Shown here in pieces: positions 2,042 to 60,108 of a DNA stretch of 64,000 nt (its first letter is position 1; each line of letters opens with the position of its first letter). Location: positions 75,388 through 139,387 of the forward strand of contig CP060229.1 in the NCBI GenBank assembly GCA_023898585.1, in the 5' to 3' direction. Source of the DNA: Candidatus Nomurabacteria bacterium (GTDB lineage Bacteria; Patescibacteriota; Minisyncoccia; Phycocordibacterales; UBA918). A program made the position numbers and the translations under genes. The notes under the pieces are model-generated. The model had not been told where the DNA came from, searched no databases, and worked only from the letters and a program-made list of their open reading frames with translations.

Positions 2042-4201
2042 ATGAAGGAAGAGCGACAATCACAAATCCCGGAGGTTTTTTTATCTCCCTACGACCCGGC
2101 GAAACACGAAAAACGTATCTATCAGCTTTGGGAAGAATCCGGATTTTTTAATCCTGATAATTTGCCAGGTGAGCGTAGCGAACCCTTCACAATCGTAATG
2201 CCTCCACCAAACGCCAACGGTTCTCTCCACGCGGGTCATGGCCTCGTTTTCGCCATCGAAGACACCATGATGCGCTTTGAACGTATGCGAGGCAAGAAAG
2301 CACTCTGGTTACCGGGTGCTGACCATGCTGGTTTTGAAACTCAAGTAGTCTACGAAAAGAAACTCCAGAAAGAAGGCCGTTCTCGTTTTCAAATGGAACC
2401 AAAGGATCTCTACAATGAGATCATGGATTTTACCATGTCAAACAAATCGATCATGGAAAATCAGATTCGTGAACTGGGCGCATCCTGCGATTGGTCTCGT
2501 TCACTTTTTACTCTTGACGATTCCGTAATCAAAATTGTTTACGACACTTTCAAAAAACTGGAGGAAGACGGACTTTTATATCGCGGAGCTCGCACTGTAA
2601 ACTGGTGCCCCAAACATCAAACTTCACTTTCCAATCTCGAAGTCAACTACAATGAAAAGACTGATCCTTTTTATTACTTCCAATACGGACCGTTTGTAAT
2701 CGGTACAGCAAGACCAGAGACAAAATTCGGCGACAAGTATGTAGTTATGCACCCGGATGATGCACGTTACGAAGATTTCCAGCATGGACAAAAAATTGAT
2801 CTCGAATGGATAAATGGACCGATTGTCGCGACCGTCATCAAAGACCAAGCGGGTGATCCAGAAATGGGCTCAGGTGTGATGACAATCACTCCTTGGCACT
2901 CCAACATTGATTTTGAAATCGCTAAACGACACGATTTAGACTACGAACAAATAATTGATTGGCGAGGTAAATTACTTCCTATCGCGGGAGAATTTGACGG
3001 AATGAACATTGAAGAAGCCCGCCAAAAAATTGTCGATAAGTTGGACAAAAAAGGATTGTTGGTAAAAATTGATGATAAGTACGACCATTCAGTTCCGTGT
3101 TGCTACAAATGCGACAAAGAAATTGAACCACAAATTCGCGAGCAATGGTTTGTTAAAATGCGACCTTTGGCGGATAAAGCCATAGAAGCGGTAGACTCAG
3201 GTAATGTCAAGTTCGTGACCAATCGCGACGAAAGGGTTTTTAGAGATTGGATGAGCAAAATTGATGATTGGAACATATCCAGACAAGTAGTTTGGGGTAT
3301 CCCAATTCCCGCCAAGGTATGTAGCGAATGCGGTCATGGCATGGTGGACTTGGAAAGCAAAATCACTAAGTGTGAAAAGTGCTCCGGTAAAGTCGAAAAA
3401 GATCCCGACACGTTCGATACATGGTTCTCATCAGGTCAGTGGCCTCTGGCAACGACCCACTATCCTGATGGAGACGATTTCAAACAACACTACCCTACTT
3501 CAGTCATGGAAACCGGCAAGGACATCATTTTTTTCTGGGTATCAAGAATGATCATGCTTGGTCTTTACAGAACCGGAAGAGTACCGTTTAAAAAAGTTTA
3601 TCTACACGGCATGGTACGTGATAAACACGGAAAGAAGATGAGTAAGAGTAAAGGCAACGTTATAGCACCAAGCGAAATTCAAGAACGTTTTGGAACCGAC
3701 GCCCTACGCATGGGCTTATTGGTTAACACCGCGCCGGGCAGTGACATGAATCTAGACCCTGATAAGGTGAATGCTTATAAAAAGTTCGCCAACAAAATCT
3801 GGAATATCACCCGTTTTGTACTGGAAAACACTTCCGACATGCCCGAGCAAGCAACCTTGACGGCCGATGATGCAGAAAATATCAAAGCTAAACTAAAAAC
3901 AACAATAGCGGAAATAACCAAGGACATGGAAAAAGACCGTTTCGACCTGGCATCGGAAAAACTTTACCATTTTGTTTGGAGTTATTTTGCGAGTGAGTTA
4001 CTGGAAGAGTCAAAACCTTTGCTTCAATCCGGTGATGCGTCAGTCAGAATATCGAGACAAAAACTTCTCAGAGAATACCTGATAACATCAATTAAACTGC
4101 TTCATCCTTTTATGCCGTTTGTTACTGAGACAATCTGGCAAGAACTGCCGGATGATATGAAAGATCACGCTGTCTTGATGGTAGCGCAGTGGCCCAAGTA
4201 A
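2042..4201 (+). CDS. valS: valine--tRNA ligase (class I aaRS), compact form lacking C-terminal coiled coil
   Basis: PPPNANGSLHAGHG (HIGH region, ValRS-like PPPN), KMSKSKGN (KMSKS), CP1 editing motif TARPETKFGDKYVVMHPDDARY. Confidence 0.8.
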   Translation: MKEERQSQIPEVFLSPYDPAKHEKRIYQLWEESGFFNPDNLPGERSEPFTIVMPPPNANGSLHAGHGLVFAIEDTMMRFERMRGKKALWLPGADHAGFETQVVYEKKLQKEGRSRFQMEPKDLYNEIMDFTMSNKSIMENQIRELGASCDWSRSLFTLDDSVIKIVYDTFKKLEEDGLLYRGARTVNWCPKHQTSLSNLEVNYNEKTDPFYYFQYGPFVIGTARPETKFGDKYVVMHPDDARYEDFQHGQKIDLEWINGPIVATVIKDQAGDPEMGSGVMTITPWHSNIDFEIAKRHDLDYEQIIDWRGKLLPIAGEFDGMNIEEARQKIVDKLDKKGLLVKIDDKYDHSVPCCYKCDKEIEPQIREQWFVKMRPLADKAIEAVDSGNVKFVTNRDERVFRDWMSKIDDWNISRQVVWGIPIPAKVCSECGHGMVDLESKITKCEKCSGKVEKDPDTFDTWFSSGQWPLATTHYPDGDDFKQHYPTSVMETGKDIIFFWVSRMIMLGLYRTGRVPFKKVYLHGMVRDKHGKKMSKSKGNVIAPSEIQERFGTDALRMGLLVNTAPGSDMNLDPDKVNAYKKFANKIWNITRFVLENTSDMPEQATLTADDAENIKAKLKTTIAEITKDMEKDRFDLASEKLYHFVWSYFASELLEESKPLLQSGDASVRISRQKLLREYLITSIKLLHPFMPFVTETIWQELPDDMKDHAVLMVAQWPK

Positions 4202-7462: not shown

Positions 7463-7534
7463 GCCCTCGTAGTTCAATGGATAGAACAGCACACTCCTAA
7501 CGTGCTAATGTAGGTTCGATTCCTACCGAGGGCA
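7463..7534 (+). tRNA. tRNA-Arg(CCT)
   Basis: GCCCTCGTAGTTCAATGGATAGAAC...CTCCTAA...GTAGGTTCGATTCCTACCGAGGGCA; perfect 7-bp acceptor; anticodon CCT (A31:C39 mismatch in anticodon stem). Confidence 0.8.
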
Positions 7535-9048
7535 CAAAACAAGACTTCTGACGAAGTCAACGAGCGCGGAGAAGCCGCGCGAGAAAAAGAAAAAGGAGAA
7601 ATACGCCGTCGCGTAGCGACGAAATGGCTGGGCGAGGGCACGGAAAAGTGGGCGGTTTTGTCACGAACCACATGGTTCGTTCCGATTTTTTGGACGAAGT
7701 CGGCAATTTCGGAGAAATTGTCAGACGAGGACAAAAAAGCGGCTTGTTTCGTATCCAAAACCCACTCCCGCAAGGGTTCGACCCAAGTATTTCCCCGACG
7801 TTCACAATCTTTCTTCTTCTCGTTCAAAGTGGCGAGAGAGCGCATAGTAGTGTCTTTCTTTTTTAGATAAATCTCTTTCGGTATGTCTCCGTCCAAATAC
7901 GCAGATACTAGCTTCTCCATGCGCTCCTCGTCCGCTTTGATTTTGGCAGAAAGATTTTGAACATCACTTTGCGATGAGTTAGTTTCTTCACGCTCCCATT
8001 CGTCAATTTTCGCCAACATCCAGTCAGCGTACTCATCGCAAAGTGAAATTGTTTGAAGCCGATCCTTAATTTGTGCAACGAGGTCTTTCTCTTGTACATA
8101 CCCTTGCGAGCAAGCGCCGTGCTTCTTGGTACAGCGATAGTAGCGATACACTCCACCATTGCCCTTAGCGTGTTGCGCCGTGAACATGCCGCCGCACTCA
8201 CCACAACGGAACAGTCCTAAAAACGGAAAATCATGGCGGTTTCTTCGCATCGGCGCACGCGCTTTGCTCGCAAGAACTTTTTGCACGGCTTCAAACAATG
8301 TCGGGGAAATAATTGGTTCAAATGTGCCGTCAAACCATTCTTCATTGTGACGAACAAATCCGAGATAAGCACGATTGCTCAAAAGGTGTTTGATGGCACA
8401 TTTGGCAAGTGGCTTTCCTTTCGAACTGGTAACGCCTAAATCCACCAAAAACTGCGACAAAGAAACCAGTCCATGTGTACCTTTCGCATATTCCTCAAAA
8501 GCGTGCTGCACAATCTTGGCGTTCACCTCATGCGGTTCTATCTGCCGAGTACGCGGATTGTTCACATACCCAAATGGCGCTTTTGTGAGCCACTCACCTC
8601 GTCGCAGTTTTTGGCGGATGCCTCTTTTCACATTTTGTACCAGATTGTCTGAGTAGTATTTACTTTGCCCAAAAGCCACTTGCAACATAAAGAGCCCTTG
8701 TGGAGTGGGTTCAAACCAAAATGTCGGAAAGCGCAAAGACGCGATTCTCTCGGTATCTACGGCATATATGACGCGCCCACCGTCAATCGAATTGCGCGCC
8801 AATCTATCGGGATGCCAACCAAGAATGCCCTGCGCTTCTCCCGATTCAATACGCGTCATCATCTCATTAAAAATCGGACGACCGGGTGTCTTTGCGCTTT
8901 TCGACTCTTGAAACTCCGCTAGGATTTCAAGATTTTCTTTACGCGCAAATTCACGTAGTTCAAACAACTGGGCTTCAATACTCATGACTTGCTTATCGTC
9001 ATCTTCTGTTGATTTGCGAGCGTATAGAAAATATTTTGGTTTGATCAT
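7474..9048 (-). CDS. large serine recombinase (resolvase/invertase catalytic domain + recombinase domain + zinc ribbon)
   Basis: MIKPKYFLYARKSTEDDDKQ... with catalytic Ser in YARKST, Cys cluster CGECGG...C, ~524 aa; start at ATG 9048 (the ORF upstream extension lies in repeat sequence); 3' end overlaps tRNA-Arg on the opposite strand. Confidence 0.85.
   Translation of the reverse strand: MIKPKYFLYARKSTEDDDKQVMSIEAQLFELREFARKENLEILAEFQESKSAKTPGRPIFNEMMTRIESGEAQGILGWHPDRLARNSIDGGRVIYAVDTERIASLRFPTFWFEPTPQGLFMLQVAFGQSKYYSDNLVQNVKRGIRQKLRRGEWLTKAPFGYVNNPRTRQIEPHEVNAKIVQHAFEEYAKGTHGLVSLSQFLVDLGVTSSKGKPLAKCAIKHLLSNRAYLGFVRHNEEWFDGTFEPIISPTLFEAVQKVLASKARAPMRRNRHDFPFLGLFRCGECGGMFTAQHAKGNGGVYRYYRCTKKHGACSQGYVQEKDLVAQIKDRLQTISLCDEYADWMLAKIDEWEREETNSSQSDVQNLSAKIKADEERMEKLVSAYLDGDIPKEIYLKKKDTTMRSLATLNEKKKDCERRGNTWVEPLREWVLDTKQAAFLSSSDNFSEIADFVQKIGTNHVVRDKTAHFSVPSPSHFVATRRRISPFSFSRAASPRSLTSSEVLFCALGRNRTYISTLGVCCSIH
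7597..7721 (+). repeat. core+Y repeat (direct copy of 13838..13945; core GGCACGGAAAAGTGGGCGGTTTTGT at 7633..7657)
   Basis: about 120 bp near-identical to 13838..13945; the core is present inverted at 9095..9119. Confidence 0.8.
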
Positions 9049-9059
9049 AATTTTGAAAA

Positions 9060-9600
9060 AATTATTTTTGGATACGAAACAAGAAACAAAACCGCCCACT
9101 TTTCCGTGCCTCACCCTGTCCGATTTCGTCTCACAGCGACGGGCTGTATTTGGTTTTGTTTCCTCGCGCCGCTCGGTCGCTATTAGTTGACCTTCGGACG
9201 AAGAAGTCTTGTTTTGTGCAGAAATACTGACCTTTGCTCGAACCCATTTCGAGAACCGATGAACATACCATGATCGTTCACGCGCCGAGCGCGTGGTGAT
9301 GCGGACGCGAAGCGTACGCATTGGGGAATACATGTTTGGGCGCGCTCCGTCCTCTCACTCCGTCGTCGCTAAGCGTGCCGTACGGCCACGCATTTCTTCG
9401 CCTCCGTTCGTGCGGCTCCTCGCAAAACCCCATTTTCCTCCGCCGAAAGGCCAAAATATTGAAAAGGAAATGGTTGGTTTTGCTTGCGTAGGGCTGCTTT
9501 ATCAACATGTGCTGTATTATATAACATTGGATAGTAAACAAAAGTAAGTATAATTAAAACTTGTTAATGTTATGACGACTGCAATAGAAAAGCTGGCTAA
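9060..9600 (-). repeat. core+X inverted-repeat arm (reverse complement matches 13381..13900)
   Basis: blockwise reverse-complement alignment of 9061..9600 to 13381..13900 with several small indels; also inner IR 9064..9090 matching 7738..7762. Confidence 0.8.
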
Positions 9601-13380: not shown

Positions 13381-13945
13381 AGGCGAAGTGAAAAGCTTTC
13401 TATTGCAGTCGTCATAACATTTCCACAGTTTTAATTATACTTACTATTGTTTTACTATCCAATGTTATATAATACAACACATGTTGATAACTCACCCCTG
13501 CACCCACCAACCATTTCCTTTTCAATATTTTGGCCTTCGGCGGAGGGGTTTGGGGAGGAGCCGCATTAAAAAGGCAAAGGAAATGGTGGTGGGATGCACG
13601 CGCGCAGCGATAGCGGAGCGCGTCCCAAGGCGCATGTATTCCCCAATGCGTACGCTTCGCGTTCGCATCACCACGCGCTCAGCGCGGCACGATCATTGTC
13701 CTTTCTCGAAATGGGTTCGAGCAAAGGTCAGTATTTCTGCACATTCAGAAACTTCTCGTTCCGTGAGGTCGCTACGCGACAAAGCGGCGCGGGAGCCAAA
13801 ACTAAAACAGCCGTTCGAGAGTCTCCCAGACTCCCTCACCTCCGCGACGAAATCAGACGGAGCGGGCACGGCGAGGCGGGCGGTTTTGTCACGAACCGTA
13901 TGGTTCGTTCAGACTTTTTTGACGAAGGAGGCAATTTCGGAAAAT
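13381..13945 (+). repeat. X+core+Y composite repeat (copy of the alternative recombinase junction)
   Basis: 13381..13900 equals reverse complement of 9060..9600; 13838..13945 equals 7597..7721; ORFs 13481..14011 and 13594..13950 are translation artefacts of this repeat. Confidence 0.85.
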
Positions 13946-17882: not shown

Positions 17883-19547
17883 TTATTGCGGAGCGATCAC
17901 ATCTGTTTTTAAGATTCGTGATTGAAAAGAACGGTATATTTCTTTCAGTTCCGGGGAGTTACCGACGGCATATGTCAAAACAATAGCAACTATACCCATG
18001 ACACCGGCCGTTATCCCCTGGATCATTATTCCAACAAAAGTTTCTTGGTTTATTCCCCCCACCACAAAAACCAAAGTCACGTAGGCAGTGACCGCCCCAG
18101 CAATGGTCGCCACACCGGAATGTACAAAAAGTCTCGCCAGTGGACGAAGGTTTATGTTAAAGATTCTTTTTGATAAGACTATAAGTGCAATGAGTTGGAT
18201 ATATTGACCAAGCACAAAAGCTAAGGCCAGGACCAAGACTTCAGAACCCGCAACCCCAGTCAAGCGAAAAGTTTCATTCAAGAATGATTGTAGAGCGGTG
18301 TATTCCGTGTATAAAAACATAAAGCCCGTGGCTAGCGCGACGGAAATTACACCTCCGGCGAGAGCAACAAAAAAAGGAAGGACTGTGCGACCGCCAGCAT
18401 AAAAAGCTCTTATCAACAAAAGCAAAACGGCTTGCGCCAAAAGCGAAATAACAAAAATCGCCAACATAGCGGCCGTCAACCTGGTATCGCTCCAGTTAAA
18501 CTCCCCACTTCCAAGAAGCACGCGCACAATCTGAGCACGCAGAACAATAACCAAACCAATGATAGGAATTGACCAGAAAAATATGTGTCTCAAAGCGGTT
18601 AAGAGTTGTTTGTTGAAGCCCTGTAGGTCACTTTTAGCGTGTAAATAAGAAAGAGTCGGAAAAGCGGCAACAGAGTAACTCATGCCTATAATTACCAAAG
18701 GGACGGATTGCAAATTGAAAGCAAACTGAAAAACCGATACCGACCCAACCGACATCACGGAAGCCATGCCGATTAAAATAAGTAGCACAATTTGATTGAT
18801 TGATAATGTTAGCGCTCTTGGTACGGAGACCAGAAGAATGTTCTTTATTAATCCCCAATCAATTTTGGACGTCGTAAAGAAAGAATATTCGCTCTTTAGC
18901 ACAAACGGTAACTGAATTGCCAGATGTCCCACAGCTCCCAAAACCACCCCGACGACGAGACCGACGAGACCGACTGCAGGATAAAAGAAAGTAATCCCTA
19001 AAATGATTCCAACATTGTACAAAAGTGGGCTGAGGGCATACAGGATAAAACGATGGTTCATCTGTGTTACAACCCCGCACAAACTGGATAAACCCAGCAA
19101 AAACGGTTGGATAAGCAAGATACGCAACAACAGAATCAGACTCTCATACTCTTCCCCAAAACCGGGAAATATATGCAGAACATACCAAGGCGCTAAAAGC
19201 GCCAACAATCCGGCTACCAGCGTATACACCAACAAGAATAGCGAGAACATTTGCGACAAAACTTTCGCGCCACCGGCTGGGTTATTATCCTCAGCGTATC
19301 TGTTCACGAAAGGCAACAGCACATATATCGAAAGAACAGAAGCAAAAAGCACAAATAACAAATCTGGGATGCGAAAAGCGGCATAGTAAAGATCAAGTTC
19401 AATCCCCGCGCCAAAAGTGTGAGCGAGAAGCCTGTCTCTAACAATCGCTAAAATTTGTGATCCAAAAGCAAATAATGCGAGTATGTAAGCAGCCTGATGT
19501 AAACCACGCACCTCACGGTACACAAAGTTGAAAACTCGCTTAACCAT
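17883..19547 (-). CDS. murJ: lipid II flippase MurJ (MviN)
   Basis: 554-aa polytopic protein, N-terminal MurJ pattern (ILAIVRDRLLAHTFGAGIELDLYYAAFRIPDLLF). Confidence 0.8.
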   Translation of the reverse strand: MVKRVFNFVYREVRGLHQAAYILALFAFGSQILAIVRDRLLAHTFGAGIELDLYYAAFRIPDLLFVLFASVLSIYVLLPFVNRYAEDNNPAGGAKVLSQMFSLFLLVYTLVAGLLALLAPWYVLHIFPGFGEEYESLILLLRILLIQPFLLGLSSLCGVVTQMNHRFILYALSPLLYNVGIILGITFFYPAVGLVGLVVGVVLGAVGHLAIQLPFVLKSEYSFFTTSKIDWGLIKNILLVSVPRALTLSINQIVLLILIGMASVMSVGSVSVFQFAFNLQSVPLVIIGMSYSVAAFPTLSYLHAKSDLQGFNKQLLTALRHIFFWSIPIIGLVIVLRAQIVRVLLGSGEFNWSDTRLTAAMLAIFVISLLAQAVLLLLIRAFYAGGRTVLPFFVALAGGVISVALATGFMFLYTEYTALQSFLNETFRLTGVAGSEVLVLALAFVLGQYIQLIALIVLSKRIFNINLRPLARLFVHSGVATIAGAVTAYVTLVFVVGGINQETFVGIMIQGITAGVMGIVAIVLTYAVGNSPELKEIYRSFQSRILKTDVIAPQ

Positions 19548-22858: not shown

Positions 22859-23419
22859 CTAGGAAGTCTTGAGCACAACTTGATCGCCAACTTTTATTGA
22901 ATTATTAGAAACGAAACCGGCTACCGCCTCTATAACAAACCAGGACGAGACGGGAGAAGCGAAAGATTCCGGGTATGTGTCAGGAGAGACGTTTTCTTCA
23001 ATGTGAACAATTTCACCTTCCTCCGCGACCCATATAATATCAATCGAGTAATTCATGTCCTTCATCCAAATTGAATGTTCACCGGCTGTGCCGAAAGAAA
23101 ACAGCTTTACCACATTGTCGGGCAGAAACGGGGTGTCGGAAAGACCCATGATGCGCTCCGGTATAGTGTCTGCAACTGAAGCTTGTACAGGAACGCCACT
23201 AATGGTAATCGGAACCGTATTAGGATAAATGACTCGCCAGTCTTCGGGAGGAACATCCTTTTCCTGCTCCTCACTTTTTACCGATATTTCATACTCACCG
23301 CGAGCCACCGCTTCACGCACATTCTCTTGTTCATACTGAACCGCAAAATAAATCCAAACTCCACCCCCAACGAGGGCAATAAACAAAAGCACCATGACAA
23401 TTCTTTCGGCGGTTTTCAT
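22859..23419 (-). CDS. DUF192 domain protein (COG1430) with N-terminal membrane anchor
   Basis: 186-aa ORF; C-terminal DUF192-like pattern (GLSDTP...MKDMNYSIDIIWVAEEGEIVHIEE...WFVIEAVAGF...GDQVVL). Confidence 0.6.
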   Translation of the reverse strand: MKTAERIVMVLLFIALVGGGVWIYFAVQYEQENVREAVARGEYEISVKSEEQEKDVPPEDWRVIYPNTVPITISGVPVQASVADTIPERIMGLSDTPFLPDNVVKLFSFGTAGEHSIWMKDMNYSIDIIWVAEEGEIVHIEENVSPDTYPESFASPVSSWFVIEAVAGFVSNNSIKVGDQVVLKTS

Positions 23420-23435
23420 ACAAAAAATATCAAGC

Positions 23436-23632
23436 TAGACTAATTTTTACTTTAGTAGAGCGTGTTCAAAAATCCTCCGATCTCCAAAGGTTTGCAAAAT
23501 TTGAGACAAAAAATTGATAGAATTTCGAGTCATACTGATTGTACGGTAAGAAATTATAGCGGTTTTTTGACCAAATTTTGCAAACCGACGTGCCGGAACA
23601 AAATACTAGAAAGCAATTCATTCTTTTGTGTA
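23436..23632 (-). repeat. MITE-like element copy A (inverted relative to copy B at 58377..58571)
   Basis: 197 bp; termini TAGAGCGTGTTCAAAAA ... TTTTTGGACATGCTCTA; reverse complement about 90% identical to 58377..58571; internal TTGCAA-N19-TATAAT promoter-like sequence oriented toward DUF192 gene. Confidence 0.8.
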
Positions 23633-23666
23633 GGATTTTTGGACATGCTCTAGTATTGGCAGTATA

Positions 23667-24959
23667 TCACTTTAGGACATCGAGGAAAATTGTCGCTAGC
23701 CCGAGCAAGAAAATAAGCCCACAGACGTCCGTGACAGTGGAAATAAAAATGGTTGATGTGGCCGCCGGATCCTTCCCAAGATGTTTCATCAGTAAAGGCA
23801 CAATCGAACCGGCGAAGGCTGCCACAATATGTGAGGCAACAAGAGCGACAGCAACAATCGCTCCGAGTTCGGGCTGACCATTCCACAAGGCCGAGACCAG
23901 GGCCACTATAGAACCAATAATTACTCCGTTTGCTACTCCAGCACCCAACTCCTTCCAGATGGCCGGGGTGGCATTCTGCAACGAAATAGTTCCTAGCGTT
24001 ATACCCCGCACCATAATCGCAAAGGTTTGAGTAGCGGCGTTGCCACCCATACCGGCGATAATGGGAATGTAGACCGCTAGAATCGTCAGCGTGTCCAAAG
24101 TATCCTGAAAAGCAAGAACTACTGAACCGGCTAAAAAACAAGTTGCCAAGTTAAGAATCAACCATTTGTAGCGGTTCTGCACCTTTTTCCCCACACCATC
24201 AAAAGGCCTTTCACTATCATCGACACCGGCAAATTCATACAAAGATTCGGCCGGCATGTTACCGAACAATGTCCTCGCGGCATCGGCGTAGATGATACCC
24301 AACACACTGGTATCGTGATCAAGGACAATCACCTTTTTACTGTCGGTACTTACCAAAGTGTCGACTATCTTATTGACATCCGCTTGATAGGTAATAGTCT
24401 GGACACTCTGAACATGCTTCTTCAAAATACTGGTGTTTCTTTCTTTTACAATCGAAGAAAGTGGTACCTCACCAATTAATTCACCATCATCATGCACTAA
24501 AACTTCGGGGTAGCGGGCCGTCTCTTCGTAGTGATCACTTATCAGTTCAGCCGCTTTAGAAATCGTTAATGAACCGGCTAGAAACAAATAGTTGAAGTTG
24601 ATCAACGATAGAGTGGCCTTGGGGTGAAACCGCAAAAAATATTCCATTTTTTCTTTAACATCACCTTTGAGACGTTGGACGATTTTGTCTCTTTGTTTTG
24701 GGTTTTTTATTCTAGCCAAAACTCGTTGTGCTTGTTGCATGTCCATATGATCGAGCATCTCAACAATCTCGTGTATGCGCAGATGTTTTAGTATTGACTG
24801 TTGTACATAAGGTGACAAATTCTCAAAAACAACACTTCGTTCAGGTACGCTCATGTCGCGAAATATACTCATTCTCTCCTTAGTATGATAAGTCAGAGAA
24901 TGCACATAATCCGGTTTCTTTTTCTGCATTGCCATCAGTATATCAGGGTCGCGATACAA
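23667..24959 (-). CDS. mgtE: magnesium transporter MgtE
   Basis: N-terminal MgtE_N, tandem CBS region, C-terminal 5-TM MgtE channel domain; 430 aa. Confidence 0.85.
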   Translation of the reverse strand: MYRDPDILMAMQKKKPDYVHSLTYHTKERMSIFRDMSVPERSVVFENLSPYVQQSILKHLRIHEIVEMLDHMDMQQAQRVLARIKNPKQRDKIVQRLKGDVKEKMEYFLRFHPKATLSLINFNYLFLAGSLTISKAAELISDHYEETARYPEVLVHDDGELIGEVPLSSIVKERNTSILKKHVQSVQTITYQADVNKIVDTLVSTDSKKVIVLDHDTSVLGIIYADAARTLFGNMPAESLYEFAGVDDSERPFDGVGKKVQNRYKWLILNLATCFLAGSVVLAFQDTLDTLTILAVYIPIIAGMGGNAATQTFAIMVRGITLGTISLQNATPAIWKELGAGVANGVIIGSIVALVSALWNGQPELGAIVAVALVASHIVAAFAGSIVPLLMKHLGKDPAATSTIFISTVTDVCGLIFLLGLATIFLDVLK

Positions 24960-48518: not shown

Positions 48519-48597
48519 ATATCGAGAGATTATAACACTATAGCCGGCTTGGGAAAATGAAAAAGGCTGGCAAGGAAGCCAGTCTTTTTCATTCTTG

Positions 48598-48668
48598 TTG
48601 CGGGGCCCGGAATCGAACCGGGGTCTGGAGGTTATGAGCCTCCCGAGGTACCTCTCCTCTACCCCGCT
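48598..48668 (-). tRNA. tRNA-Met(CAT), initiator-like (1:72 mismatch)
   Basis: reverse complement AGCGGGGTAGAGGAGAGGTACCTCGGGAGGCTCATAACCTCCAGACCCCGGTTCGATTCCGGGCCCCGCAA. Confidence 0.65.
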
Positions 48669-49046
48669 GTAATATTCATTCTTTTCTCCTCTCATCTTAA
48701 CGGAATCTCGGGAGGTTATGAGTCTTATGATTTTTCTGCTCGGTACCTCTCCTCTACCCCGCTGTAATATTCATTCTTTTCTCCTCTCATCTTAACGGAA
48801 TCTCGGGAGGTTATGAGTCTTATGATTTTTCTGCTCGGTACCTCTCCTCTACCCCGCTGTAATATTCATTCTTTTCTCCTCTCATCTTAACGGAATCTCG
48901 GGAGGTTATGAGTCTTATGATTTTTCTGCTCGGTACCTCTCCTCTACCCCGCTGTAATATTCATTCTTTTCTCCTCTCATCTTAACGGAATCTCGGGAGG
49001 TTATGAGTCTTATGATTTTTCTGCTCGGTACCTCTCCTCTACCCCG
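48669..49046. repeat. tandem repeat, 95-bp unit, about 4.6 copies, derived from upstream region + 5' half of the adjacent tRNA-Met
   Basis: unit TCTCGGGAGGTTATGAGTCTTATGATTTTTCTGCTCGGTACCTCTCCTCTACCCCGCTGTAATATTCATTCTTTTCTCCTCTCATCTTAACGGAA starting at 48706, 48801, 48896, 48991, with a variant copy spanning the tRNA itself. Confidence 0.9.
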
Positions 49047-49270
49047 CTATGTTATTTAATTCTACTGCTACCACGCGTTTGAATGAGCTCTTCTCATCCT
49101 ACAGGGTCTGTACACCTTGTCACTAAATTATTTCGTTCCTCATAATTTAGCAGGCAAGGTCTTGCGAAGGTCTCCCAGACCTTCTCAACCCGCTTAATAC
49201 CAATTCTATTTCTGTCGATTTAAAAACAAACGACAGTGTTAAATTACACCATTTTCGAAATGTTAGCAAC

Positions 49271-57717: not shown

Positions 57718-58212
57718 TTATTGACAAGTGGTAACATTATTTCCCGCAGTAGCATCTGCAACTATCCTTGTTGCACCTATTTCGCCAGCAAAACCTGAAC
57801 TGTCGACACAGAAAAACTTTCCAGAACGTAGAGTCACTTGTACTCCGTATGATTCGTCATTGGCTGCACATATTCCCGTGCCATTAGCCTGAGCATTTGC
57901 TGCTTGCATTAATTTTACAATTGGTGCATTTGCACAGACTCCGGGAGCATTTGTTCCACTGTCCGTAACATTAGTCATAGTACCATCAGCAGCCATTGTT
58001 GCATCATTTAAACCATACGTAAATCCATTCTCCGAGTAATAAATTTCAGCAGCATTTCTGATGTTGTTGGTGGAGGTCTTCGCAGACGCGTCATTGGCAT
58101 TATCCCGAGCATCGTTTAGTGAACCAATCACCACCGCTGCCAAGATACCAATAATCGCGATCACGACGAGAAGTTCGATGAGTGTAAAACCTCGTTGTAA
58201 AGTCTTTTTCAT
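57718..58212 (-). CDS. type IV major pilin (PilA-like), second paralog
   Basis: MKKTLQRGFTLIELLVVIAIIGILAAV (start trimmed from 58245 to 58212); C-terminal Cys pair. Confidence 0.8.
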   Translation of the reverse strand: MKKTLQRGFTLIELLVVIAIIGILAAVVIGSLNDARDNANDASAKTSTNNIRNAAEIYYSENGFTYGLNDATMAADGTMTNVTDSGTNAPGVCANAPIVKLMQAANAQANGTGICAANDESYGVQVTLRSGKFFCVDSSGFAGEIGATRIVADATAGNNVTTCQ

Positions 58213-58376
58213 AAAATACTTATACTTAATTATCTTTTTATTCATTAATATCGGATTTCAGATATCAGCTGCGTATCTGAAACTCGACGGCCTACGTTGT
58301 ACGAGGCTCCATTTATTATACGACGTTGTTCCGCTTTAAAAATAAACAGTAGTCAGCAATTGTGGACAACACAACT

Positions 58377-58571
58377 TAGAGCATGTCCAAAAACCCTACA
58401 CAAAAGAGTAAATTCTTCTCTAATATTTTGTTTCGGCTCGTCGGTTTGCAAAATTTGGTCAAAAAACCGCTATAATTTCTTACCGTACATCAGTATGGCT
58501 CGAAATTCTATCAATTTTTTGTCTCAAATTTTGCAAACCTTTGGAGCTCGAGGGTTTTTGGACATGCTCTA
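58377..58571 (+). repeat. MITE-like element copy B (195 bp) with extra palindromic half-site 58572..58586
   Basis: TIRs TAGAGCATGTCCAAAAA ... TTTTTGGACATGCTCTA; inverted copy of 23436..23632. Confidence 0.8.
58446..58476 (+). promoter_or_regulatory. sigma70-like promoter-like sequence inside the repeat (TTGCAA-N19-TATAAT)
   Basis: perfect -10 TATAAT at 58471..58476, -35 TTGCAA at 58446..58451; same sequence inverted in copy A about 23517..23547 facing DUF192. Confidence 0.35.
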
Positions 58572-58890
58572 GAGCATGTCCAAAAATCCCAATTTCTGCG
58601 TTGTCTGCATCTCGGTATGCTCACCGTATGTCCATATACGTCTCACATACCTCGATTTGACACCGTACCGGTGCTGTACACCTTTTGGATAATTTTATTC
58701 GTAAACTCTAAAATTATCGCAAAAGGTCTTGCAAAAGTCTTCTAGACTTTCTCACCTTGAAATTGTGAGTTTTGAAGACATGCTCTTGCTCTGTTGCAAT
58801 GTCAGACAATCATACCGCTCTGTATTATAAGGTTTTCAGACATTCTCTTGGTGAGGAATGACTCTTCGTATGGGGCTGAAAGTGGAAGAG

Positions 58891-60108
58891 CTAGAAAGCG
58901 CTCGTCATGTTGTAAATAGGCATCAACACTGAAGCGAGAAGTACACCTACCCCGAGACCAAGGAGCACGATCATGGCCGGTTCAATCAGGCCTATTAAAG
59001 TGTCAACCGCATTGTTTACCTCACGCCGGTAGAAGTTGGAAAGAGTGGTGAGGATAGTTGCCAAGCTTCCGGTTTCTTCACCGACCTTGACCATTTGAGC
59101 GAGTACACCGGGGATCTCAGGATATTCCGCTATAGAGTCGGCAAAAGAACGTCCACCCTTAACTTCCGTCAAAGCTGATTCGATAATCTCTCGATAAACA
59201 GCGTTGTCAACCACATCGGCAGTCACTTCAAGAGCCTGTACAATCGAAATACCGCTTCCGAGCATGGTAGACATGTTGTCACAGATGCGAGTCAAGAGTA
59301 GCTTTCTTTGCAGATCACCAAGATACGGCAGAGAAATTAGTAATCCGTCTATGGTGCGTTTACCAACTTCGGTTTTAGAAAATCGCCAAGCTCCAATACC
59401 GCCAAGAGCAATGATGAACAGCAACAAGGCGATATAATCGACCATGAAATCAGAAATACCGATGACTATCTTGGTATATATAGGTAGCTCTTGACCAGAA
59501 TCTGACAAAATGGCGGCGATATTCGGTATCACTAAAGTAAGCATCATCGCCATAACACCAATAAATATTGTGATCACAAAGGCCGGATAAACGAGAGCAT
59601 TTCTGGCTTTGGAAATCACTTCATACTGTCGGTCGAGATAATCTGCCAAATAATCAAAGGTTTTTTCCAGTGAGCCGGATTCTTCCCCAGCTTTCACCAG
59701 ATTTATATAGAATGACGAGAATATGTCGGAATGAACTGACAAGGCTTTGGATATCGAATTACCGCCTTGCAGATCTTCAACAATTTGGTTCATCGCGCTT
59801 TTTAGTCTGGGGTTTTCAATCTCGGCCGACAACAACCGGAAGATTCTAAGGGGTGAAACCTGAGCTTGAAATAAAGTGGCAATCTGTCGTGACAAAATTA
59901 CCACTTCTTTGTTGGACACCGACTGGAACATTGCAAATTCTATATTGAAAGCCCCCATCAATCCGCTAGTCTCGCCGACCTCAGAAATCGAGATCAGGGT
60001 GTATCCTCGTTTTTGTACCGCAGTGATGGCCGCGTCTACGGTCGAAGCTTCGACGGTGCCTTCGCGTTGAATATTTGAACTGTCTATGGCTTTGTAATTA
60101 AAGAGCAT
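58891..60108 (-). CDS. pilC: type IV pilus platform protein PilC (GspF family)
   Basis: 405 aa, duplicated T2SF domains, three TM segments. Confidence 0.85.
   Translation of the reverse strand: MLFNYKAIDSSNIQREGTVEASTVDAAITAVQKRGYTLISISEVGETSGLMGAFNIEFAMFQSVSNKEVVILSRQIATLFQAQVSPLRIFRLLSAEIENPRLKSAMNQIVEDLQGGNSISKALSVHSDIFSSFYINLVKAGEESGSLEKTFDYLADYLDRQYEVISKARNALVYPAFVITIFIGVMAMMLTLVIPNIAAILSDSGQELPIYTKIVIGISDFMVDYIALLLFIIALGGIGAWRFSKTEVGKRTIDGLLISLPYLGDLQRKLLLTRICDNMSTMLGSGISIVQALEVTADVVDNAVYREIIESALTEVKGGRSFADSIAEYPEIPGVLAQMVKVGEETGSLATILTTLSNFYRREVNNAVDTLIGLIEPAMIVLLGLGVGVLLASVLMPIYNMTSAF

Follow-up and report, generated by a model that had tools for sequence, protein, structure and literature searches.

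We analyzed a 64,000-nucleotide stretch of the genome of a Candidatus Nomurabacteria bacterium (contig CP060229.1, positions 75,388 to 139,387), referred to below as the window, which contains two inverted copies of a repeat of about 195 bp. [quoted passage not shown] A first-pass annotation of the window had already read them as a MITE, and that reading was strengthened by their IS5-type ends, the flanking TA, empty sites in relatives, a homologue elsewhere and the lack of a conserved reading frame. Loci collected for comparison from other genomes and contigs are numbered L001 to L184.

Alignment and repeat finding delimited the inverted pair. Copy A occupies 23456..23652 on the plus strand (197 bp with the TA on either side counted; its core, GAG...CTC, is 23458..23650), and copy B occupies 58377..58571 on the minus strand (195 bp; core at 58379..58569). 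The two copies matched in 183 of 198 aligned columns (92%; 91.9% by BLAST), with four single-base indel columns, a longest identical run of 51 nt and another of 48 nt. This bears out the inverted pair of ~195-bp repeats that had been annotated at roughly 90% identity; the coordinates given for copy B were correct, while those for copy A (23436..23632) lay 20 nt too far to the left. The GC content of the copies is 35.5 to 36.4%, against 43.2% for the window. Neither repeat finding nor nhmmer detected a further full or partial copy of the element interior within the 64 kb. Short-read contigs break within both copies, as would be expected of repeats, and the breaks are accounted for by the two known copies.

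At up to three mismatches, the window has six occurrences of the 17-nt motif TAGAGCATGTCCAAAAA, compared with 0.26 expected from shuffled sequence; the only exact ones are the two ends of copy B and the right end of copy A (23636..23652, minus strand). The left end of copy A (23456..23472, plus strand) reads TAGAGCGTGTTCAAAAA, with two mismatches to the right end, both of which form G-T pairs on the plus strand. The terminal inverted repeats are 21 nt long and perfect in copy B and 17 nt long with the two mismatches in copy A. The first-pass statement that each copy ends in the same inverted repeat therefore applies to copy B and to the right end of copy A, but not to the left end of copy A.

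These termini, TA-GAGCRTGTYCAAAAA, are the ends of ~900-bp insertion sequences (ISs) of the IS5 family. Pairing of left and right termini within loci yielded eight units of about 901 to 924 bp with TA-GAGCATGTTCAAAAAC... ends (L129, L133, L138, L140, L150, L155, L159 and L165). Each contains one open reading frame (ORF) of 267 to 288 amino acids with DUF4096 and DDE_Tnp_1 domains, and the ORFs match NCBIfam NF033580 (IS5 family) at 234 bits, above the cutoff of 110. The encoded transposases are 66 to 82% identical to each other and about 49% identical to those of ISGdi1 and of IS5-family copies on Synechocystis plasmids, and the L138 protein is exactly MEK7576356.1, which is annotated as "IS5 family transposase [Patescibacteria group bacterium]". 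The same ends bound a 1,628-bp unit (L109), whose DUF772 plus DDE_Tnp_1 protein is closest to IS1182, and a 903-bp unit in a Saprospiraceae metagenome-assembled genome (MAG) (L108), whose IS5 transposase is only 39% identical. A 1,526-bp terminus pair in Brevibacillus (L023) lies inside a 728-amino-acid non-transposase ORF and was taken as a chance pairing.

ISGdi1 ends in GAGCCCGATCCGAAAG, and the Synechocystis IS ends in GAGCGTGTTTGAAAAG and GAGCGTGTTTGAAAAGT. The pattern common to both ends of the window element and of ISs of the IS1031/IS427 kind (ISGdi1, ISLrh, the Synechocystis copies and MEK7576356.1) is GAGC.TGT..AAAA, and the sites of these ISs, like those of the window element, are T/A-rich and contain TA. 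The likeness is closest for the ~900-bp ISs of the L138 type, the terminal 17 to 20 nt of which are the same as those of the window element. Unlike the IS5-family ISs, the window element is 195 bp long, codes for nothing and has no interior sequence in common with them. ISGdi1 and the Synechocystis IS have 3-bp TTA flanks, whereas in the window element and the Patescibacteria-type ISs the TA stands directly against GAG...CTC.

The same terminus also bounds at least 25 unrelated short interiors in Bacillota, candidate phyla radiation (CPR) bacteria, Sumerlaeota, Bacteroidota and others (loci L001 to L167). Short repeats with the same 17-nt start and unrelated interiors were present on at least eight contigs of an unclassified MAG, mostly at contig ends, and at no fewer than 12 sites of Bacillus caseinilyticus among the matches listed, which also included short terminus-bounded repeats in Kaiserbacteria and Saccharibacteria MAGs. 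Examples are L003, L009 and L032 in B. caseinilyticus and L001, L005 and L038 in the MAG PMV_2_maxbin.003. The matches listed by the degenerate-terminus scan, which covered one genome per species, are mostly chance 17-mers and are not usable as a copy count. Interiors of the short terminus-bounded units fell into 26 clusters, 22 of them singletons. Since the interiors are unrelated, the terminus is the sole shared part, as expected if one widespread transposase group mobilizes many unrelated non-autonomous elements.

Comparison with relatives revealed an empty site for copy A. In the window, copy A lies between the Mg2+ transporter gene mgtE (23667..24935) and a DUF192 gene (22859..23419), both on the minus strand, at 14 nt from the mgtE stop (23667) and 36 nt from the DUF192 start (23419); its reference strand is antisense to both genes. 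The DUF192 protein has one 99% identical variant, and the next relatives are at most 73% identical. Every contig with the identical or the 99% identical protein carries copy A, which in the strain with the 99% identical protein is 100% identical over the 340 nt compared. In L169 and L170, whose DUF192 proteins are 71% and 69% identical, the gene order SpoU methylase, SurA-like, MgtE, DUF192 and TPR protein is kept, and the distance from the mgtE stop to the DUF192 ATG is only 19 nt and 16 nt, respectively, compared with 247 nt in the window. The sequence TATACT just past the mgtE stop is common to all three, and in the window the element follows 8 nt later. The short spacers in the relatives indicate that copy A is an insertion into a tight, presumably cotranscribed operon junction.

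Copy B lies in a 645-nt spacer between a pilC-like gene (T2SS F family; 58891..60108) and the first, prepilin-type pilin gene (57718..58245), both on the minus strand. In L184, whose PilC is 83% identical, the pilC-pilin spacer is 406 nt long, resembles that of the window over no more than the final ~82 nt ahead of the pilin gene and contains no terminus-like sequence. The ~82 nt upstream of the pilin start that are conserved in L184 lie outside the MITEs. Immediately upstream of the pilin gene we also noted an inverted repeat, TTTCAGATACGCAGCTGATATCTGAAA (about 58255-58285, minus strand), that is conserved in L184 (about 4080-4110), the spacer of which is otherwise unrelated; it is a candidate operator or regulatory hairpin of the pilin gene.

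A full-length homologue, 77 to 79% identical, was found among the matches listed in Paceibacterota MAG-855 (L008:882..1071), where its neighbors are a divergently oriented membrane-protein gene and an unrelated 172-amino-acid ORF. Six-frame translations of copy A, copy B and the L008 homologue showed no reading frame open in all three, and copies A and B share no open frame because the single-base indels shift the frames. A metagenome scan with the terminus plus YCC returned further families and ISs but no further member of the window family, another metagenome scan with the family-specific subterminal pattern TGTGTAGGRTTTTTGRACATG returned zero matches, and so did a scan of viral contigs with an interior pattern. 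An nhmmer profile of the three copies likewise found no new member among the ~184 collected loci and the window. By sequence, the element is a new MITE family, known from three copies in two genomes of Paceibacteria, and belongs to a large set of elements from several phyla that use one IS5-type terminus.

TA is present on both sides of copy A, copy B and the L008 copy. Among 31 distinct terminus-bounded units of the form TA-GAG...CTC-TA, position -3 is a pyrimidine in 24 and position +3 is G in 17, that is, an apparent Y-TA-R target. IS427 makes a 2-bp TA duplication. Duplications of 3 bp, TAA or TTA, were found in six units (L006, L026, L039, L054, L108 and L173), a Synechocystis IS among them, and by inspection ISGdi1 has TTA; these 3-bp units agree with the TNA rule described for the IS1031 group (PMC12016507). 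Transposase subgroups that share these ends may make different staggered cuts. A 3-bp (TNA) or 4-bp (YTAR) duplication was rejected for the window family, in which the flush bases, xTA on the left and TAy on the right, cannot be equal.

The element pairs almost end to end to form one long hairpin of about 190 nt. Its central part is an inner palindrome (23489..23586) with arms GGTTTGCAAAATTTG at 23489..23503 and 23572..23586. The predicted RNA fold of copy A has -74 kcal/mol on the plus strand (z = -8.5 relative to shuffles) and -63 kcal/mol on the minus strand (z = -7.0), so that the RNA-fold check proposed in the first-pass annotation returned a stable hairpin of the whole element. When the three family members were compared, copy B folded most stably (-88 kcal/mol), with -71 kcal/mol for copy A and -50 kcal/mol for the L008 homologue. 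The predicted hairpin thus appears eroded in copy A and in the L008 homologue relative to copy B, which argues for neutral decay.

Beside copy B we found a second MITE family. The segment 58570..58660 (plus strand) is a truncated left part, about 90 bp, of an element with the same terminus that stands head to head with copy B. It is 75 to 80% identical to the left ~90 nt of ~121-bp elements (E values, 1e-12 to 5e-4) from Kaiserbacteria (L101 and L004), Saccharibacteria (L072) and metagenome contigs (L163 and L164), and it lacks the right half. The TA at 58570..58571 belongs to both copy B and the remnant, and their abutting termini form a 32-bp perfect palindrome (58555..58586). The extra half-site and 22-bp palindrome previously assigned to copy B are explained by this arrangement: the palindrome exists, as the core of the 32 bp, but the half-site is the terminus of the second family and not a part of copy B. 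The sequence is most simply explained if copy B entered at the TA next to the older element (target T-TA-G).

Two further terminus-like remnants lie closer to pilC in the same spacer on the minus strand, AA-GAGCATGTCTTCAAAACTCA at 58766..58787 and the degenerate AA-GAGAATGTCTGAAAACCTTA at 58828..58849. Six short-read contigs, obtained from different samples, break off exactly 30 nt inside the first remnant, which suggests either another copy elsewhere in the genome or a polymorphism in the population. The possibility that 58570..58787 is a single 218-bp element was ruled out; 58666..58754 is homologous to an intergenic motif at 49100..49187 that has no termini. This ~90-nt motif (also at 13816-13838), 71% identical between its two sites (E value, 8e-6), contains a hairpin, GAAGGTCT...AGACCTTC, lies downstream of minus-strand genes and is without IS-type termini. 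It could be a cassette of terminator plus promoter or a further small repeat.

We propose the following mechanism. An IS5-family transposase would recognize the terminal inverted repeats of 17 to 21 bp (TA-GAGCRTGTYCAAAAA...) and insert the element at TA, preferentially at Y-TA-R, with TA ending up on both sides. The interior is unrelated to the IS and is an AT-rich, nearly full-length palindrome, so that either DNA strand, or any RNA transcribed across it, would fold into the ~190-nt hairpin. Copy A would have landed in the 16- to 19-nt mgtE-DUF192 operon junction, and copy B at a TA beside an older MITE of the second family in the pilC-pilin spacer. If the element affects DUF192, by read-through that leaves the hairpin in the mRNA, by partial termination or by a new start inside it, this would be incidental and not the reason for the element. 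The present copies are most likely immobile relics, because the window contains no transposase, the two copies have diverged by 8%, and the predicted hairpin has decayed in copy A and in L008.

Several observations weigh against this interpretation. The copies seen number only two in 64 kb and three across all sequence searched. No interior homology to any IS was found, and the similarity to IS-bearing loci is limited to 20 to 26 nt at the termini, which does not establish the element as a deletion derivative of an IS. The window contains no transposase; tblastn with IS5 and IS1182 transposases gave chance matches only. A 2-bp TA duplication is weak evidence when taken alone, and the search pattern preselected TA at one end. 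Copy A is flanked by a flush 5-bp direct repeat, TAGTA (23453..23457 and again 23651..23655, plus strand), but copy B and the L008 copy have TA only. The TAGTA of copy A may be a real 5-bp duplication or chance, and the minimal target-site duplication would be TA. Flush 5-bp repeats were found in five independent units, with TAATA, TTATA, TATTA, TATAA and TAGTA (L027:1114-1273, L082:2524-2706, L083:6926-7078, L089:4025-4271 and window 23453-23655), and they exceed chance by our estimate (three among the TA/TA units, compared with 0.26 expected).

The hairpin provides a further point on that side. The consensus fold of the three sequences has 73 pairs, nine of which keep their pairing through changes on both sides, and this hints that the hairpin may be under some constraint beyond the ends bound by the transposase. 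About 20 of the 73 pairs are broken in at least one copy. The covariation comes from three sequences only, in which constraint is not separable from shared ancestry, and within the terminal repeats covariation is to be expected in any case, since one transposase has to fit both ends.

It was proposed in the first-pass annotation that the interior of the element carries TTGCAA-N19-TATAAT, facing the DUF192 gene about 100 bp away, and that the element may supply the promoter of that gene. The hexamers are present in copy A (TTGCAA at 23583..23578 and TATAAT at 23558..23553, minus strand; overall 23553..23583) and do face DUF192, but the distance from the end of TATAAT to the DUF192 ATG (23419) is 133 nt. 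Extending this proposal, the element could be a MITE by origin that was domesticated as a promoter module, kept since TTGCAA-N19-TATAAT and its mirror TTGCAA-N20-TAGAAT on the other strand drive DUF192 and other neighbors, by analogy with the outward promoters of the Neisseria Correia elements. We consider this possible but unlikely. Sigma-70-like promoters are documented in several bacterial MITEs (PMC10969869, PMC4596501), TATAAT is kept in L008, where the element lies between divergent genes, and copy A is unchanged over the 340 nt compared in the strain with the 99% identical DUF192. In addition, DUF192 may need a new start now that the insertion has split the former operon junction.

On the other hand, the spacer is 19 nt in copy A and 20 nt in L008, where the -35-like hexamer is shifted, and the alternative -35 sequences at 17 to 18 nt from TATAAT match TTGACA, by our reading of the sequence, at only two to three of six positions. 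A sigma-70 consensus scan with spacers of 16 to 18 nt found no promoter-like site in the copy A region (23300..23800) and, in the copy B region, three weak 9/12 sites that are unremarkable relative to shuffles. In copy B, TATAAT lies on the strand that reads antisense into pilC, the opposite strand, toward the pilin gene, has TTGCAA-N20-TAGAAT, and upstream of the pilin gene is a conserved region of its own that is not part of the MITE. A scan placed a weak terminator-like hairpin with a T-run at 23490..23474 (minus strand), between TATAAT and DUF192. Moreover, the hexamers lie within stem regions, so that their conservation is explicable by the palindrome. We also considered a hybrid promoter formed by the outward, -35-like TTGAAC or TTGGAC of the terminus and a flanking -10 sequence and, by our reading of the sequence, found no acceptable -10 at 16 to 18 nt on either the DUF192 or the pilin side. 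The sequence evidence for a promoter is weak, and the argument from orientation is a coin toss. Because the scan was negative and copy B has the opposite orientation, the claim that the element supplies the DUF192 promoter stays speculation.

About as improbable is a role as a cis-acting RNA hairpin, in which the ~190-nt fold would be an RNase III target or a bidirectional attenuator (A5-stem-T5) in the mgtE-DUF192 or pilC-pilin RNA, would uncouple the expression of the flanking genes and would be kept in the genome for that function. The fold is very stable on both strands, the stem is flanked by an A-run and a T-run, the terminator-like site at 23490..23474 and the nine compensatory pairs among the three copies would fit such a role, and cleavage of Correia-containing transcripts by RNase III provides a precedent (PMC10969869). 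However, copies A and B are oppositely oriented relative to the direction of their flanking genes, which argues against an oriented cis-regulatory element. The better-folding strand, with the G-U pairs, is antisense in copy A, no terminator-like site was found in copy B, the decay of copy A and L008 relative to copy B resembles neutral erosion, and the covariation carries the limit already given.

A broader functional interpretation is slightly less likely still. It holds that the element is kept in a streamlined CPR genome of ~1 Mb because it rewires expression, and that one conserved IS5-type terminus mobilizes dozens of unrelated hairpin cargos across phyla. Selfish DNA of 200 bp in a streamlined CPR genome should be purged fast. 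If this interpretation were true, the hairpin would stop or process the mgtE transcript, an internal start would give DUF192 its own control after the splitting of the operon, and the shared terminus would be a general source of regulatory modules across phyla, including the CPR.

The two copies had further been regarded as substrates for large-scale inversion. Their opposite orientation and 92% identity, including stretches of 48 and 51 nt without a difference, would in principle allow recombination to invert the 35-kb segment that they enclose, but we found no sign of it and regard it as very improbable. The junctions are parental in each of the six contigs that reach across a full copy (L119, L120, L121 and L168 for copy A; L174 and L175 for copy B), the minus strand carries almost every long ORF between 14.5 and 64 kb, and GC skew stays negative over this range, within the 23.6-58.4 kb interval as well as beyond it. 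Least credible of all is that the element is not a transposon but a duplicated small-RNA gene or other structured noncoding RNA with ends that are IS-like by chance: the strong fold z-scores and the G-U asymmetry favoring one strand speak for it, but IS5-family ISs and dozens of other short repeats have the identical 17-nt termini, orthologous sites lack the element, its orientation to neighboring genes is not fixed, and in Rfam searches only tRNAs reached the gathering score in the window, while a lenient search of the element gave generic miRNA-type hairpins at 16 to 26 bits, far below gathering scores of 80 to 249.

Among known bacterial elements, the MITE described here resembles the Correia elements (CREE/NEMIS) of Neisseria, which are MITEs of ~100 to 200 bp with terminal inverted repeats, TA ends and a long transcript hairpin, are intergenic, often just upstream of genes, and carry promoter-like hexamers (PMC10969869). 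Their termini are unrelated in sequence to those of the window element, and they exceed 100 copies per genome, compared with two copies in 64 kb here. Promoters, an integration host factor (IHF) site and RNase III cleavage have been shown experimentally for Correia elements, whereas the promoter-like site of the window element is predicted from sequence and has a 19-nt spacer. Chunjie of Geobacter uraniireducens is likewise an AT-rich MITE, 178 to 235 bp long, with terminal inverted repeats of ~21 bp, a very stable predicted RNA fold and one copy inside an operon (PMC3184786, PMC10969869). It differs in its 9-bp direct repeats, its dozens of copies and its unrelated sequence.

BrickBuilt of Porphyromonas gingivalis is an intergenic MITE whose ends match those of the resident ISPg1 and ISPg9 and which contains no transposase remnant; bidirectional promoter activity was proposed for it and measured with lacZ fusions (PMC4596501). 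Unlike the window element, it has an internal 23-nt minisatellite and 19 copies, and its terminus, GAGACCTTTGCA, is different. Tourist MITEs and PIF-Harbinger elements of eukaryotes are short, hairpin-forming non-autonomous elements with IS5-related transposases and TWA/TA sites. Being eukaryotic, with a 3-bp duplication and unrelated sequence, they may serve as an analogy only. The features of repetitive extragenic palindromes and bacterial interspersed mosaic elements (REP/BIME), which are GC-rich imperfect palindromes of ~20 to 40 bp with a GTAG-type head, were not found in the element, which is 195 bp long and AT-rich with IS5-type ends.

The window contains other features of note. A tandem array at 48647-49048, with 4.2 copies of a 95-bp unit that are all 100% identical, lies by a tRNA-Met gene (48597-48668, minus strand). 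Each unit repeats the 5' ~21 nt of that gene plus an anticodon-loop-like CTCATAACCTCC, so that the real tRNA is preceded by a row of pseudo-tRNA fragments; the array could be a real minisatellite or an assembly artifact. A 619-amino-acid large serine recombinase (7474-9333) adjoins a tRNA-Arg gene (7463-7535). Inverted repeats of ~400 bp, 85 to 100% identical (9195-9590 and 13397-13763), flank a ~3.8-kb segment with a 330-amino-acid ORF, and the N-terminal and upstream region of the recombinase is duplicated, in inverted orientation, near 13.6 kb. The region is possibly an invertible segment or an integrated island. ARAGORN reported a 95-nt tRNA-Leu(CAG) at 18471-18565 (minus strand) that has no Rfam tRNA match at the gathering score, and this may reflect a long variable arm, an intron or a false call.

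MITEs are well known in bacteria. A full-text literature search found no description of MITEs in CPR (Patescibacteria) genomes, which are very small and usually poor in mobile DNA. The locus is a clean example: relatives have an empty site, a former operon junction took up an insertion, members of two MITE families are nested together, and the same superphylum has an autonomous IS5-family partner. Annotation can profit from it, since such repeats break short-read assemblies at the locus, and it provides a small test case for the tolerance of insertions in operons, although it opens no new mechanism. The element is an ordinary kind of selfish DNA, and the splitting of the mgtE-DUF192 junction would be its one biologically interesting consequence.

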